Origin: OCS116 cluster bacterium AG-430-B22 | Lineage (GTDB): Bacteria > Pseudomonadota > Alphaproteobacteria > MED-G09 | Reading direction: 5' to 3' | DNA: 64,000 bases | Assembly: GCA_003209955.1 (NCBI GenBank) | Contig: QCOD01000007.1 | Span: 2,208 to 66,207, forward strand | Shown here: one piece after another, positions 4,194-12,437 of the stretch | How the letters are laid out: each line of letters starts with the position of its first letter | Numbering within the stretch: the stretch's first letter is position 1 | The notes under the pieces: generated by a model | What the model saw: the letters and a program-made list of their open reading frames with translations, nothing else | What the model was told of the DNA's origin: nothing | Databases searched by the model: none | Made by a program: the position numbers and the translations under genes

Positions 4194-6914
4194 ATGTCAG
4201 ATACAACTGACGAAGATCCAATTGAAAGCAAAGATATCTCTAATACTAATTTAGATGAGGAGATGCGTCAGTCTTATCTAGATTACGCTATGAGCGTTAT
4301 AGTATCTAGAGCATTACCAGATGCCCGTGATGGTTTAAAACCTGTACACAGAAGAATTCTTTATGCAATGCATGAAGATGGTTATGACTACAATAAACAA
4401 TACAGAAAATCTGCAAGAGTTGTTGGTTCAGTTATTGGTAAATACCATCCCCACGGTGATCAAAGTATCTATGATGCACTTGTAAGAATGGCTCAACCTT
4501 TTTCGCTTCATCTTCCGTTAGTTGATGGGCAGGGAAACTTCGGATCTGTCGATGGCGATCCACCGGCTGCAATGAGGTATACAGAAGTAAGGATGGAAAA
4601 AATTGCACATCACCTTCTTAATGACATCAATCTAGATACAGTAGATTTTCAAGAAAATTATGATAATTCTGAGAGTGAACCTATTGTTCTACCTGCCGAA
4701 TTTCCAAATCTACTTGTAAATGGTGCTGGCGGAATTGCTGTGGGTATGGCTACAAATATTCCCCCTCATAATTTAAACGAAATTACAGAAGCATGCATGT
4801 TTATGATTGATAATCCTGAAACTAATGATCAGGAAATGGATCAAAGATTATGTGAAATTGTTCCAGGTCCTGATTTTCCAACCGGAGGAATAATTCTAGG
4901 AAAAAGCGGTGCCAGAAGTGCTTATACAACTGGCAGAGGTTCAGTGGTAATTAGAGCTAAAGTAGAAATTGAAGAAATACGTAAGGACAGAGAGGCACTA
5001 ATTGTTACAGAAATACCATATCAGTTAAATAAGGTATTACTAATCCAAAAAATTGCTGATTTAGTTAGAAGTAAAACAATTGAAGGTATATCTGATTTAA
5101 GAGATGAAAGCGATCGTCATGGAATGCGTATAGTTATAGAACTAAAGCGTGACTCAGTTGCAGAGGTAATTTTAAATCAACTTTATAAATTTACTCAACT
5201 TCAAACTTCTTTTGGCGCAAATATGGTTGCTTTAGATAAAGGAACTCCTAAATCAATGAAACTAAGGGAAATGCTTACCTGTTTTATTGATTTTAGAGAA
5301 GAAGTTGTAACTCGAAGATTAAAATTTAAATTAAACAAAGCTAGAGATAGAGCCCATCTTTTGGTTGGTCTTGCTATTGCAGTTTCAAATATAGATGAAA
5401 TAATAAAACTTATCAGATCTTCTAAATCACCTGCTGATGCAAGAGAGGATTTAATGGACCGTGAATGGCCTGCCAAAGATGTTAAATCTCTTATTAAACT
5501 AATTGATGATCCTAGGCATGGTATTACAGCTAAGGGCAATTGTTCTTTTACTGAAGAACAGGCTAGAGCAATTTTAGAATTAAGACTTCAAAGATTAACT
5601 GCAATGGGTATTGACGAAATCAAATCAGAATTAGATGAGTTAAAAGGAACAATAGAGAATTTATTATCAACTCTTGGTGATAAGGGGAAAATTTATGACA
5701 TCATTAAAGATGAATTAACTTATGTTAAAGACAACTTTGCCGTTGAAAGAAGAACAGAAATCCTTGGAGAATTAGATGATGTTGAAGATGAAGATTTAAT
5801 AAAGAAAGAAGATATGGCTGTTACTGTTACCAGATCAGGCTATATCAAGCGGGTACCTTTATCAACTTATCGAGCCCAAAATAGGGGCGGTAAAGGTAGG
5901 GCAGGCATGCAAACAAAAGATGATGACTTTGTAAGGCATATTTTTATTTCTAATACTCATCAACCAATTTTATTTTTCTCGTCAAAAGGAATGGTTTACA
6001 GATTAAAGACATGGAAATTACCACTTTCTAGCCCTCAAGCAAAAGGAAAGGCCATGGTTAATCTTCTTCCATTGGATGAAGACGAGAGAATAACAACAGT
6101 AATGTCTTTACCGGAAAATCAAGATGAATGGGAAAATTTATATGTAATATTCGCTACTTCCTCTGGTGGCATAAGAAGAAATTCATTAGCAGATTTTTGG
6201 CGTATTAATAAAAATGGTAAAATTGCCATGAAGTTAGATTCTAAAGAAAGAATAATTTCTGTTCAAACATGTACAGAAGATAACGACATACTTTTAGCAA
6301 GTAAGAAAGGCCAAAGCATTAGGTTTAATGTAGATAAGGTTAGAGTATTCGCATCTAGATCTTCTACAGGTGTAAGGGGTATTAGATTGTCAAAAAATGA
6401 CAGTGTTGTTGGTATGGCGGTATTAAACAGAGTAAAAGCATCAAATGATGAGCTTAGAGCTTATCTAAAGATGTCATCTATGATGCGCAAAGCGACAACA
6501 GATGATAACAATGATGATGATGATGACCTGGATTTTGAAGGAAATGATATAGAGCTTTCTACTGAAAGATATTCAGAATTAGCTGCAAGTGAAGAAATAA
6601 TTCTAACAGTTGCCTCTAATGGGCAAGGAAAAAGATCTTCTGCGTATGAGTATAGAACTACAAATAGAGGCGGGAAGGGAGTTATAGGAATTAAAATGAC
6701 TAAATCACACGGTGATTTGGTTGCTTCCTTTGTAGTTGATGAGAATGATCAAATTATGCTTATAGATAATAGTGGAAAATTAATTAGATGTCCGATTACA
6801 GATATAAGAATTATGGGAAGAACGACTCAAGGTGTGAAAATATTTAATATAGACAAAAATGCACATGTCGTTAGTGTAGAAAGAATTTTCGAAAGCGAGG
6901 GAGAGGAAGAATGA
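4194..6914 (+). CDS. gyrA: DNA gyrase subunit A
   Basis: 906 aa. Has the [26 protein letters not shown] and AAMRYTE (catalytic Tyr) motifs, a GyrA-box-like [10 protein letters not shown], and beta-pinwheel CTD repeats. Confidence 0.97.
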
Positions 6915-10408: not shown

Positions 10409-10484
10409 GGGCCCGTAGCTCAGTAGGTAGAGCACCTCCCTTTTAAGGAGATTGTCACAGGTTCGATCCCTGTCGGGCTCACCA
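10409..10484 (+). tRNA. tRNA-Lys (anticodon UUU)
   Basis: Folded by hand into a cloverleaf: acceptor GGGCCCG/CGGGCUC, D arm GCTC/GAGC, anticodon loop CTTTTAA, T arm ACAGG-TTCGATC-CCTGT, encoded CCA. Confidence 0.88.
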
Positions 10485-10698: not shown

Positions 10699-11445
10699 AT
10701 GAGCGGAACAATAACTCTTTTAATTATTCTTCTTGCTACTCTAAGTACAGCATTTTTGTCGTCAATTTTTGGAATGTTAGGCGGCCTCATTTTAATGGGT
10801 GCATTGATTACTATAATGCCTGTAAGTCAGGCAATGGTCTTACATGGATTAATTCAATTAACATCAAATGGTTATCGAGCATGGCTTAATAAAACAGATA
10901 TTAAATGGAATATTGTTTCTACATTAATTATTGGTAATATTATCTCACTAGTTGGTTTATTCTCATTAGCTTTTGTACCTGATAAAATAACTGTACTTTT
11001 AGTACTAGGTTTATTGCCATACATAGCTTGGGCGCTTCCTAAAAATAACTCCTTAGATGTAAGCAAAAAACCAATTGGTATTTTAGCTGGCATGGTGGTG
11101 GTGGGCAGTAATCTTCTATCTGGTACAGGAGGCCCTTTATTAGATATTTTTTTCCAGCGAGTAAATATGACTCGCTATCAGGTTGTTGCAACCAAAGCTT
11201 TAGCTCAAAGTTTAGGCCATATATCTAAGATAATATTTTTTGGTTTTCTTACAACATCTAAATTTAATACTTGGCCAAGTTTTTGGCTAATTTTTTTTGC
11301 TGTGATAGCTTCTGGTATCGGAACTACTTTAGGAAAAATAATATTAGATAAAATTGACGATAGAACCTTCTTTGTATGGACACAAAGCATCTTACTAACT
11401 ATTGGTGCTGTGTTTATAGCCTATGCACTCTATCTAATGAAATGA
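10699..11445 (+). CDS. TauE/SafE (TSUP) family sulfite/organosulfonate exporter-like membrane protein
   Basis: 248 aa, about 8 TM helices, with internally duplicated glycine-rich helices (GMLGGLILMGAL, GTGGPLLDIFF) typical of DUF81/TSUP. Confidence 0.75.
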   Translation: MSGTITLLIILLATLSTAFLSSIFGMLGGLILMGALITIMPVSQAMVLHGLIQLTSNGYRAWLNKTDIKWNIVSTLIIGNIISLVGLFSLAFVPDKITVLLVLGLLPYIAWALPKNNSLDVSKKPIGILAGMVVVGSNLLSGTGGPLLDIFFQRVNMTRYQVVATKALAQSLGHISKIIFFGFLTTSKFNTWPSFWLIFFAVIASGIGTTLGKIILDKIDDRTFFVWTQSILLTIGAVFIAYALYLMK

Positions 11446-11490
11446 GTCTTAGAAAGTCTTAAAATTCTATTGAAGCAATATTGAATTCCC

Positions 11491-12168
11491 TCACTGATCA
11501 CCATCACACATCACATCAAGCAAAACACCGTTAGGTGTACCAGCTGTTGCATACATCCATACATTATCGCTTTTCTCAGATAACTCTACTTCCTCGCCAT
11601 CACCCATGAGACCTGAATAACCAAAGATACGAACTGGTCTGGCTCTAACTTTTTCGCAGTCTATTTCAAAATACATGCTTAGAGATCTGAAATCTGTTCC
11701 TTGTGTTGAGGTATCTTGCATCGTAATGACATATTTATTGTCATTACGCTCAAAGTAACTTTTGGTATCGACATAATATTTGATGCCAACATCCGTCTCT
11801 GCATAGAGCTCCCAATTTGGTGTATAGATATCTGTTTTAATCTTTAAATTATATTCTTCACTTACACTTTCAATACCACCAATATTTGTTGTATTTGTAT
11901 AGCCAAGTTCATCTAAGATTACTTTTGCTCTACCTGATCGATTACCGCTTCTACAATACAATAAAATTTCTTCATCTTTTAAAATTGCATAATTTTCGAT
12001 ATCTTTTTTAATCTCGGATAAGGGAATATGAATAGCACCTTCTATATAACCGGCTCTCCATTCTTCATCAGTTCTAACATCTATCATTACAGAATAAGCA
12101 TTCCCACTCATCACAACTGCTAAGACTAATGCTATAAGTATTTTATTTTTTATCTTGGCGCGTTTCAT
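11491..12168 (-). CDS. Secreted rhodanese-domain sulfurtransferase fused to a C-terminal domain of ~110 aa with unknown function
   Basis: Signal peptide. Rhodanese core IDVRTDEEWRAGYIEGAIHIP with active-site loop CRSGNRSG. The C-terminal half (YYVDTKSY...EIDCEK...MCDGDQ) resembles surface-adhesin-E-like domains by pattern only. Confidence 0.8.
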   Translation of the reverse strand: MKRAKIKNKILIALVLAVVMSGNAYSVMIDVRTDEEWRAGYIEGAIHIPLSEIKKDIENYAILKDEEILLYCRSGNRSGRAKVILDELGYTNTTNIGGIESVSEEYNLKIKTDIYTPNWELYAETDVGIKYYVDTKSYFERNDNKYVITMQDTSTQGTDFRSLSMYFEIDCEKVRARPVRIFGYSGLMGDGEEVELSEKSDNVWMYATAGTPNGVLLDVMCDGDQ

Positions 12169-12271
12169 AAGCTTCTTTTTTCTTTAAATATTCTTCTTCA
12201 GATAGCGCATGCCATCCTATACAATTTTCAATTGGTGATCTTCCGCATCCACATTTAGGTACTTCGTTCAT
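12143..12271 (-). CDS. 42-aa Cys3His micro-protein with a CDGSH-like motif (MNEVPKCGCGRSPIENCIGWHALSEEEYLKKKEAYETRQDKK)
   Basis: Hand-translated; not in the ORF track. CGCGRS-x4-C-x-G-x-H is close to the CDGSH 2Fe-2S signature. Overlaps the rhodanese start by 26 nt. Weak RBS. Confidence 0.4.
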   Translation of the reverse strand: MNEVPKCGCGRSPIENCIGWHALSEEEYLKKKEAYETRQDKK

Positions 12272-12437
12272 TTTATATAACCCCGTGTTTTTCTTCTATA
12301 TATTTTAATGCTTCATCTGACATTTAATTAACCCTAACTTTTTGAACTATAACATAAATAAATAAACCTGTGACAATGTTGTTTTAATAACTTACGCTGG
12401 AAGTTAAAAGTTTAATATTTTCAACATGGAGGTGTTT

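Follow-up and report, generated by a model that had tools for sequence, protein, structure and literature searches.

The 42-codon open reading frame (ORF) on the minus strand at 12143..12271 of the window, which is the whole stretch of 64,000 nucleotides that was analysed, is a genuine gene under strong purifying selection, and its product belongs to a large, unnamed family of Cys3-His proteins of ~40 residues that has members in T4-like phages as well as in pelagic bacteria and Marine Group II archaea. The best explanation, held with modest confidence, is that the product is a self-contained, cytoplasmic, metal-binding mini-protein, probably with an Fe-S or redox role, and that its pairing with a rhodanese gene in the window is the outcome of a rearrangement.

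The gene is unannotated. The initial annotation had picked it out as a minus-strand ORF, and both its position and its length of 42 aa (MNEVPKCGCGRSPIENCIGWHALSEEEYLKKKEAYETRQDKK) were confirmed. The encoded protein carries the motif C-x-C-x2-S-x4-C-x-G-x-H, in which the candidate metal ligands are C7, C9, C17, and H21; among the other residues, R11, P13, G19, W20, and L23 are listed as invariant, and the N-terminus is without a signal peptide. Ahead of the ATG, at 12272..12284 (-), there is a Shine-Dalgarno-like GGGG (12281–12284) followed by a 9-nt spacer, TTATATAAA, and an alignment of eight copies from the same genus shows this segment kept along with the gene where the flanks differ. Further upstream, at 12346..12374 (-), a consensus scan alone predicts a TG-extended promoter-like site, GTCACA-17-TATAGT. 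A block of ~33 nt, GTC(G/A)CAGGTTTATTT(T/A)TTTATG(C/T)TATA, is found 5' of the mini-protein gene in the window and 5' of the rhodanese gene in the sister genome G004, and one promoter-like block is thus common to the two genes in this genus, whichever gene comes first. The mini-protein gene of the window may be transcribed from its own promoter-like site, with the rhodanese gene as the next member of the same transcription unit.

The window mini-protein is matched by 82 clusters at 90% identity, and the family comprises 663 representatives at 50% identity (E ≤ 1e-3). Relatives are encoded by 152 stretches of species-representative genomes and by at least 544 viral contigs, the viral carrier contigs exceeding the cellular carrier genomes in number. 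Members are stand-alone proteins of about 37–60 aa with the core (K)CGCGRSPtG-x-C(I/V)GWH-x-L(S/T)EE-x-(Y/F), which is followed by a Lys/Glu-rich helix; P0083 is a rare tandem variant with two motifs. Among 150 distinct cores, C7 and C17 are retained in all and C9 and H21 in 149 each, while R11, G19, and W20 are likewise retained in 149–150. The pN/pS of the gene is 0.19, at a pS of about 0.8, i.e., with synonymous sites near saturation, and a chance ORF is ruled out by this value together with the conservation. Interruption or lack of conservation of the ORF in relatives, or loss of the ligand residues, had been named in the initial annotation as speaking against it; a large conserved family with a near-invariant Cys3-His site was found instead.

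Among cellular organisms, the gene is carried by Rhodocyclaceae, by pelagic Alpha- and Gammaproteobacteria, and, on the archaeal side, by Marine Group II; five of five large viral carrier contigs encode the T4 Gp23 capsid protein. A tblastn search of GenBank phages with three family members gave zero matches, so the viral carriers are uncultivated. The gene is an accessory gene, patchy across the genomes of the window's own family and present in only 5 of 401 sampled genomes of the class. Family members are labelled "hypothetical protein" in the source records. The mini-protein falls in no family of Pfam or NCBIfam and in no PHROG with a functional name; the sole PHROG match, to a PHROG of unknown function, was marginal (E = 0.008) and concerned only the tandem P0083. 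A literature search returned nothing relevant on the motif CGCGRSP or on small proteins associated with DoxX or LysR.

The motif had been likened to the CDGSH 2Fe-2S signature, from which it was said to differ by one residue of spacing, and this likeness stands in part. The 17-residue CDGSH motif is phi-C-X-C-X2-(S/T)-X3-P-phi-C-D-G-(S/T/A)-H (PMC3174974); the mini-protein core, K/E/D-C-G-C-G-R-S-P-T-G-x-C-I-G-W-H, is one residue shorter, phi1, P11, and phi12 are replaced, Asp gives way to I/V/K and Ser to Trp, and alignment of the two requires exactly one 1-residue gap. The invariant three Cys plus His of CDGSH proteins are present in the family, at the frequencies given above. Aligned with hhalign against 56 alphaproteobacterial CDGSH motifs, the family pairs all four ligands, across 18–23 columns with a probability of 65–77% and a P value between 2e-5 and 6e-5, values that belong to a one-to-one and not a database-wide comparison; the score of 24.0 lies above all of 150 column shuffles (mean 9.5, maximum 21.6). 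C-x-C-G-R-S is shared with many bacterial CDGSH proteins, an element that goes past the ligands alone. What did not hold is membership of the CDGSH family itself: the proposed profile search of the 42-aa sequence against zf-CDGSH and the other Pfam families found no match, the zf-CDGSH model matched none of 29 members even at E ≤ 10, and the N-strand and the P-motif strand of the CDGSH fold are both missing from the family in sequence and in AF2 models, with only 0–6 residues ahead of the first Cys in the cellular proteins. Lacking the strands by which the CDGSH fold is defined, the mini-protein is no member of that family, and judged from sequence the resemblance is real only at the level of the motif. 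A six-frame scan of the window's own genome with PF09360 found nothing at E ≤ 1e-3. On the idea that the mini-protein might stand in for canonical CDGSH proteins where genomes are streamlined, these proteins are missing in the carriers G000, G012, and G032, but Amylibacter carries both, and the 5 carriers among 401 class genomes are too few to support a correlation.

The AF2 model (pLDDT 82) predicts that residue 6 bridges to residue 16, with a turn at 20–22 and a charged helix at 25–41, the C-terminal part being one helix in the AF2 models; Foldseek comparison of two such models with the PDB gave no matches, and a sequence profile search of the PDB gave nothing relevant. A short knuckle would hold C7 and C9, and a helical turn would carry C17 and H21 at its N-cap, the four residues jointly forming one Cys3-His metal site, most likely a CDGSH-like Fe-S centre with Zn as the alternative, and helix 25–41 may serve dimerisation or docking. 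Taken as a whole, the protein would be a small, self-contained redox or metal-handling accessory that acts outside any fixed enzyme complex.

The gene neighbourhoods elsewhere are varied. A divergent LysR gene, belonging to one orthologous cluster and associated with a GTTAT-N7-ATAAC box, lies upstream in 20 of 69 loci, and a DoxX gene lies downstream in 13 of 70; further neighbours are cytochrome b561, YceI, nitroreductase, and flavin reductase genes, and in Amylibacter the order is mini-protein, DoxX, and a type-5 CDGSH-glutamate-synthase protein. Marine Group II archaea show two arrangements, one with a NifU-like gene divergent from mini-SufC-SufB and the other with a divergent gene for an HxlR-type regulator that has a weak RrpA/B match; an archaeal ArcTGT gene lies about 0.7 kb from the mini-protein gene. 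Of 80 phage loci, 46 have a gene for GTP cyclohydrolase I (FolE) and 43 have one for a QueE-like radical-SAM protein no more than 4 kb away; in L212, L234, and L238, the QueE-like gene overlaps the mini-protein stop. A tgt-queA pair lies 0.5–2 kb away in the window and in G004, G012, and G014. Because these contexts are heterogeneous and numerous copies are solitary, the redox/Fe-S theme rests on association. A more specific picture can be put forward tentatively: the family may be a hitherto unrecognised descendant or a convergent twin of the CDGSH Fe-S cradle in minimal form (~40 residues), a stand-alone Cys3-His [2Fe-2S] protein that T4-like phages have dispersed among marine hosts, both bacteria and archaea of Marine Group II. 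The Fe-S-dependent processes that it would serve are SufBC/NifU in the archaea, deazaguanine synthesis by QueE-type radical-SAM proteins in the phages, and stress systems linked to quinones in the bacteria.

A Zn site in place of the Fe-S centre is given a minority share of credence. The Cys3-His residues would then form a structural Zn knuckle followed by a helix, and the protein would act as an adaptor or as a Zn-holding or Zn-buffering factor without a redox role, possibly serving Zn-dependent enzymes in Zn-poor seawater. C-x-C plus C-x3-H is able to coordinate Zn, Hsp33 uses CxC plus CxxC for this purpose, and knuckle or treble-clef sites typically show the topology predicted here, a hairpin-like bridge (6–16) with a helix after it; FolE, the phage neighbour, and TGT, encoded nearby in the window's genome family and in Marine Group II archaea, are Zn enzymes, and the carriers are iron-poor pelagic lineages. 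However, C-x-C-G-R-S and the C-x-G-x-H end match the bacterial CDGSH Fe-S cradle past the ligands, the SufCB, NifU, radical-SAM, and CDGSH-glutamate-synthase neighbours favour Fe-S, and no Pfam Zn-finger family is matched by the mini-protein family.

It is improbable that the main role lies in 7-deazaguanine (preQ0/queuosine/archaeosine) metabolism, with the protein as an accessory of QueE, FolE, or TGT and the cellular copies derived from phages. The frequencies of FolE and QueE-like genes in viral loci, the three overlapped stops, the tgt-queA pairs, the archaeal ArcTGT, and the excess of viral carrier contigs all agree with such a role, but most cellular contexts (LysR-DoxX, HxlR, SDR, and solitary copies) are without queuosine genes, the tgt-adjacent loci go back to only about two independent events, and the viral association may be synteny inherited inside one T4-like phage clade.

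The genes beside the mini-protein gene in the window were as described in the initial annotation, which had reported a rhodanese with a signal peptide, an overlap of 26 nt with its start, and a convergent exporter-like gene. The rhodanese gene at 11491..12168 (-) encodes a PspE-like protein of 225 aa, predicted to be exported, with an additional Adhesin_E-like C-terminal domain. Its N-terminus, MKRAKIKNKILIALVLAVVMSGNAYS, combines a K/R-rich n-region with a hydrophobic core and AYS, and was judged by eye to be a Sec signal peptide (aa 1–26; 12091–12168 (-)); the rhodanese domain (aa 27–103; 11860–12090 (-)) contains the active-site loop CRSGNRSG and matches PF00581 with E = 9.6e-16 and 58.5 bits against a cut-off of 22.2, and the C-terminal domain (aa 119–222; 11503–11814 (-)) matches PF16747 with E = 8.9e-13. 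PspE profiles are its best NCBIfam matches, with the alignment beginning at residue 9; it scores 77.4 bits with NF007627, under the cut-off of 102, and likewise misses another PspE cut-off (75.7 vs 126.3 bits). Its ATG lies within the mini-protein ORF, the overlap being 12143–12168. The TauE/SafE (TSUP) membrane protein gene, at 10699..11445 (+), is convergent with it and scores 47 bits with PF01925 (cut-off 32.6), over profile positions 2–235 of 237. The variable region comprising these three genes begins beside a tRNA-Lys(TTT) gene at 10409..10484 (+); general adjacency of the mini-protein gene to tRNA genes was considered and rejected, since a tRNA gene within 1.5 kb was seen at about 8 of 80 loci, close to the background rate of small genomes.

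This grouping is a local rearrangement and not a conserved sulfur module. In G004, a 98% identical mini-protein is encoded in the reversed order, rhodanese then mini-protein, no TauE is present at this position, and the mini-protein gene ends about 120 nt from tRNA-Lys(TTT). The 12-mer AATAAAATACTT, which lies at the junction of the mini-protein end and the rhodanese start (12136..12147 (-)), has a single copy in the window and two in G004, one where the rhodanese gene starts and the other where the mini-protein gene ends. The spacer that runs from rhodanese to mini-protein in G004 is represented on both sides in the window: its second half is kept upstream of the mini-protein gene at about 12272..12319 (-), and its first half is kept 3' of the rhodanese stop at about 11435..11490 (-), where it overlaps the 3' end of TauE. 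The order mini-protein then rhodanese would have arisen in the window's lineage by duplication-deletion or circular permutation at the 12-nt microhomology, and the same recombination would have created the 26-nt overlap and put the rhodanese ATG in the last codons of the mini-protein gene. The 12-mer was also tried as a recurrent cassette-boundary motif and rejected, 59 matches being found against 61 expected at two mismatches.

It had been proposed that the mini-protein, as an Fe-S or Zn protein, is dedicated to partnership with the periplasmic rhodanese and the TauE exporter, the three forming a compact sulfur-handling module, and a check for conserved co-occurrence with rhodanese orthologs had been suggested. 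The two genes do adjoin in the window and in G004 with the common promoter-like block, two further relatives encode PspE-like rhodaneses 1.3–3.2 kb from the mini-protein gene, and DoxX, the frequent neighbour elsewhere, works with the rhodanese SseA in Mycobacterium. Against this, of 80 species loci only 3, all from the window's own family, have a gene for a PspE-like rhodanese within 5 kb, and only 1 has TauE at such a distance; the gene order is swapped between genomes whose mini-proteins are 98% identical, the overlap is accounted for by microhomology recombination, and G011 lacks a rhodanese gene beside its 98% identical mini-protein gene, whose neighbours are TetR, dehalogenase, and efflux genes. 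As the rhodanese is predicted to be exported and the mini-protein has no signal peptide, a direct partnership is also topologically unlikely. The module is largely refuted by these comparative data, and very little credence is left to it.

Hardly any credence goes to a RiPP or metallophore precursor matured with a DoxX-type partner, as in HvfA and bufferin systems: the product is small and Cys-rich, DoxX is next to it at the frequency given above, one DoxX neighbour has a weak match to the HvfX maturation family (39.7 bits vs a cut-off of 80), and a radical-SAM/SPASM gene adjoins it in one viral locus, but this reading is rejected since no recurrent maturase, MNIO/DUF692, or DUF2063 was found among the neighbours in 80 genome loci and the pre-annotated contigs, the SPASM gene occurs in 1 of 160 loci, the signal peptide is missing, and conservation extends over the full length and across domains of life, which does not fit a leader with a variable core.

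For the window, then, an attractive yet unsupported sulfur-module reading is corrected, and the preferred explanation, a self-contained metal-binding protein that is probably of the Fe-S or redox kind, has a wider bearing. Small proteins are systematically missed by annotation, and this one is abundant in ocean metagenomes, with a near-invariant Cys3-His site that spans the boundaries between bacteria, archaea, and viruses. Should it bind an Fe-S cluster, no smaller CDGSH-like module would be known, and the cluster cradle would be functional without the beta-sandwich that was thought obligatory; if it binds Zn, it would be a new metal-handling mini-protein of trace-metal-poor oceans. At ~40 aa it is a cheap target, with cultivable carriers in the Rhodobacterales isolates HTCC2083, HTCC2255, and IMCC1909, where the genes are arranged LysR-mini-DoxX/YceI, and its ties to archaeal SUF operons and to the 7-deazaguanine gene clusters of phages can be tested.

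Several known systems can be set beside these proteins. PspE, a periplasmic thiosulfate sulfurtransferase, shares with the window rhodanese a signal peptide, a single rhodanese domain, and the active-site Cys loop, whereas the window protein scores below the PspE cut-offs and carries the Adhesin_E-like domain in addition. The SecA-type SEC-C motif (PF02810), which binds one metal, either Zn or Fe, resembles the mini-protein in its short C-x-C-G-S/R knuckle of ~20 residues; however, its spacing is C-x-C-x8-C-(C/H) with no C-x3-H, against C-x-C-x7-C-x3-H in the mini-protein, it is basic and appended to larger proteins, and neither its spacing nor its Pfam model matches the mini-protein. Proteins of the desulforedoxin and rubredoxin type are stand-alone metalloproteins (36–55 residues) with one Cys-ligated metal centre, a build proposed for the mini-protein as well, and their genes are often beside oxidative-stress genes and mobile among genomes, but they have four Cys in CxxC pairs, another fold, and no His ligand, and no sequence similarity to the mini-protein was detected. 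The CDGSH proteins (CISD, mitoNEET, PF09360) differ by a loop one residue longer, by dimer-interface residues (phi1, P11, phi12), Asp, and Ser/Thr/Ala that are replaced in the mini-protein, and by an N-strand, a P-motif (G-P-phi-x-phi, with the lid proline), and a beta-sandwich dimerisation module that it does not have. Shared with it are the arrangement C-x-C ... C-x3-H of the three Cys and the His, C-x-C-G-R-S in many bacterial representatives, a Gly two residues before the His, and a helix beginning at the His; their tandem CISD types are paralleled by the two-motif variant, and a type-5 CISD protein is encoded as its neighbour in Amylibacter.

The locus is confirmed as the initial annotation had it: in the window, the mini ORF (12143..12271, minus strand; product MNEVPKCGCGRSPIENCIGWHALSEEEYLKKKEAYETRQDKK) overlaps by 26 nt a 225-aa rhodanese ORF (11491..12168, minus strand), which has a signal-peptide-like N-terminal segment and a rhodanese domain (PF00581, E = 9.6e-16) with the loop CRSGNRSG, while a TauE/SafE gene (10699..11445; PF01925, 47 bits) is convergent with the rhodanese ORF. 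The top NCBIfam matches of the rhodanese are PspE profiles, with scores under their cut-offs, and its C-terminal domain is Adhesin_E-like (PF16747, E = 8.9e-13). This rhodanese–Adhesin_E-like fusion occurs only in the window (11491-12168, minus strand) and in G004, a sister genome of the same genus (locus L047, 71-724); stand-alone PspE-like proteins of 110-113 aa are found in other relatives (L021 2434-2775; L050 4341-4673). In addition, a 16-codon upstream ORF (MSDEALKYIEEKHGVI; 12272-12322, minus strand) has its stop one base before the mini ATG, and its start is not kept in G004.

The mini-ORF is a real gene, and the micro-ORF first proposed from the sequence is genuine. A word-indexed search found 82 matching clusters of 34-74 aa with E down to 1e-21, and among 1.84 billion representatives searched by profile, 663 matched at E ≤ 1e-3 and 313 at E ≤ 1e-10; longer entries are mostly read-through or alternative start calls. 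Among 150 distinct cores, C7, C17, R11, and G19 are invariant and C9, H21, and W20 are conserved in 149, so that the putative Cys3-His ligands C7, C9, C17, and H21 are each kept in at least 149/150. Over 24 core codons in 79 genomic copies, mean pS is 0.82 and mean pN 0.16 (ratio 0.19); the core codons are under protein-level purifying selection, with synonymous sites saturated. Sources name the product only "hypothetical protein", searches of Pfam and NCBIfam models gave no match, and the sole PHROG match was marginal, to a PHROG of unknown function; the family appears to be undescribed so far. One member recovered by the profile search, P0083 (92 aa), is a natural tandem of two complete CGCGRSPTG-x-C-x-GWH motifs about 25 residues apart, and a freshwater and viral subfamily (L106, L107, L110, L112, and protein P0082; viral loci L198, L212, L216, and L229) bears a C-terminal extension ending LW(F/N/S)-x-(D/E)(G)SCT(G/S)G, which adds one more conserved Cys.

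The window's genome is an alphaproteobacterial assembly of about 1.2 Mb, with relatives that carry the labels OCS116, Rhodobiaceae, and MED-G09. The mini gene is present in 13/25 genomes of this family and missing from several that are at least 95% complete; in an even sample of 401 genomes from the class, it occurs in only 5 (3 genera). Carriers among species-representative genomes include Rhodobacterales (HTCC2083, HTCC2255, IMCC1909, Amylibacter, Planktomarina), SAR116 and Pelagibacterales, Gammaproteobacteria (Litorivicinus, Halieaceae/Luminiphilus, OM182, Woeseiaceae), freshwater Rhodocyclaceae, one Kiritimatiellaceae MAG, and, in the archaea, Marine Group II (MGII; Poseidoniales). Some labels look wrong for their mini loci, with apparent mis-binning among the L068, L071, and L135 MAGs; contigs labelled Verrucomicrobia and Gammaproteobacteria bear Rhodobacterales-type and OCS116-type loci, and a MAG contig labelled Salipiger bermudensis bears the MGII archaeal HxlR-mini arrangement. 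The protein is also encoded on at least 544 IMG/VR contigs, usually with an N-terminal extension MQVRVKEN..(I/V)GKCGCG; T4 Gp23 capsid is encoded on all five tested mini contigs of 185-331 kb (E ≤ 1e-82), and none of the GenBank phages searched has the gene. Viral neighbours are co-directional in 198/218 cases, with HNH and homing endonucleases, endonuclease V, and dCMP deaminase among them. In T4-like phages the gene lies amid PRTase, GMP reductase, GTP cyclohydrolase I, and QueE-like radical-SAM genes (e.g., L177 2231-5989), with GTP cyclohydrolase I within 4 kb in 46/80 viral loci and the QueE-like gene in 43/80, in three loci overlapping the mini stop (L212 3983-5025, L234 918-1963, L238 3980-4988); 2OG-Fe(II) oxygenases, ferrochelatase, and cysteine dioxygenase are further recurrent neighbours of the phage copies.

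In cells, one orthologous LysR regulator lies divergently upstream of the gene in 20/69 loci (Rhodobacterales, SAR116, and a Litorivicinus), and the intergenic region holds a conserved box, GTTA(T/A)-N7-(T/A)TAAC, adjoining the LysR start, an inverted repeat that looks like a LysR T-N11-A box. A TATTAACAT-like half-site follows this repeat (e.g., L084, L086, and L093, at about 4900-5000). The same-strand downstream gene is DoxX in 13/70 loci and elsewhere cytochrome b561 (3), YceI (2), nitroreductase (2), flavin reductase, or SDR; the Amylibacter operon runs on into a CDGSH-glutamate-synthase (type 5 CISD) gene. MGII shows two arrangements: in one, an HxlR-type regulator weakly matching the redox regulators RrpA/B is divergent from the mini gene and a gene for an 86-aa protein that gave no family matches; in the other, ArcTGT (TGT+PUA) and NifU-like genes are divergent from mini, SufC, and SufB (L249-L253, e.g., L250 2266-7624; L126, L134). 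Remaining copies are solitary or close to proteorhodopsin (3/80), which lies within 5 kb in different lineages (L075 1935-2627, L078 3817-4527, L121 5716-6396), at L121 together with a carotenoid/blh cluster. Iron, Fe-S, and redox chemistry is the flavour common to these neighbours. No partner gene is universal across the contexts examined, and the gene has moved between domains of life and viruses; therefore, its product must be functionally self-contained. The compact sulfur-handling module of mini-protein, rhodanese, and TauE proposed in the initial annotation is not supported: 3/80 species loci have a PspE-like rhodanese within 5 kb of the mini gene, all three in the window's family and, among those relatives, with the two genes adjoining in G004 only; 1/80 has TauE within that distance; and the rhodanese has an exported-type, signal-peptide-like N-terminus, whereas the mini-protein has no signal peptide. 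Likely co-transcription of mini and rhodanese in the window's genus is the sole part of the coupling idea to survive.

Comparison with G004, whose mini-protein is 98% identical, bears on the overlap. There the promoter block is followed by rhodanese, spacer, and mini, and in the window by mini, rhodanese, and TauE; tRNA-Lys, lipoprotein, tgt, and queA come next, in that order, in both genomes. The two genes are thus circularly permuted behind one promoter-like block of about 33 nt (GTCACA-17-TATAGT in the window), which precedes whichever gene leads. The 12-mer AATAAAATACTT flanks the G004 unit as a microhomology, at the rhodanese start (L047 74-85) and the mini end (964-975), and occurs once in the window (12136-12147), exactly at the mini-end/rhodanese-start junction; in the window the G004 spacer is divided into a first half after the rhodanese stop and a second half before the mini gene. 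Such a pattern would result from a tandem duplication at the 12-mer and two subsequent deletions, or else from excision of a circle that re-opened within the spacer. From the 12-mer and spacer pattern, the 26-nt overlap is therefore a by-product of rearrangement. The window rhodanese ATG is formed from the mini codons for A-Y-E in another frame, and at the position corresponding to the G004 rhodanese start (MNKIL) the window has no ATG. In other same-genus genomes the gene retains its GGGG-N9-ATG ribosome-binding site with unrelated flanks (TetR, dehalogenase, and efflux; MaoC). In three MAGs the assembly breaks inside the gene (L055 end, L058 start, L056 start, L057 end; contigs C50 and C17 of G003, C94 of G009, and C14 of G007), which is consistent with one gene having several alternative flanks in the sampled populations.

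As for function, the supported features are the conserved Cys3-His pattern, phage carriage, and regulator-linked units in several lineages. The predicted fold is a knuckle plus helix, in which C7, C9, C17, and H21 would ligate one metal centre. A CDGSH-like [2Fe-2S] cluster is the leading guess, held at somewhat less than even confidence; Zn comes second and is rather unlikely, and other options share the remaining probability. The amphipathic helix may serve dimerisation or docking, a dimeric unit being hinted at by the tandem P0083; the protein could act as a small donor or sensor of redox state, cluster, or metal.

The CDGSH likeness noted initially holds at the level of the motif and fails at that of family membership. 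C-x-C-G-R-S is common to the mini family and many bacterial CDGSH proteins, and hhalign of the family profile against 56 CDGSH motifs extracted from alphaproteobacterial genomes gave a probability of 77% (P = 2e-5, score 24.0, 18 columns), above all of 150 column shuffles of the CDGSH alignment (mean 9.5, SD 2.7, maximum 21.6); viral and pooled profiles gave 65-72%. Against human mitoNEET, C7, C9, C17, and H21 were paired with the four cluster ligands across one 1-residue gap, in a non-significant alignment (E = 0.065). On the other side, Pfam zf-CDGSH did not match the family, and the AF2 model (82 sequences, pLDDT 82) contains only a bridge 6–16, a turn 20-22, and a helix 25-41. Lin et al. 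defined CISD proteins by the motif, the phi1/P11/phi12 interface, the Asp, the Ser/Thr/Ala, the N-strand, and the lid-proline P-motif (PMC3174974); the mini motif is one residue shorter than the CISD motif, the interface, Asp, and Ser/Thr/Ala are substituted, and the N-strand and P-motif have no counterpart. The family is best filed as related to, but outside, the CDGSH family as defined; its likeness may reflect either descent or convergence, and it plausibly works like a CDGSH cluster cradle.
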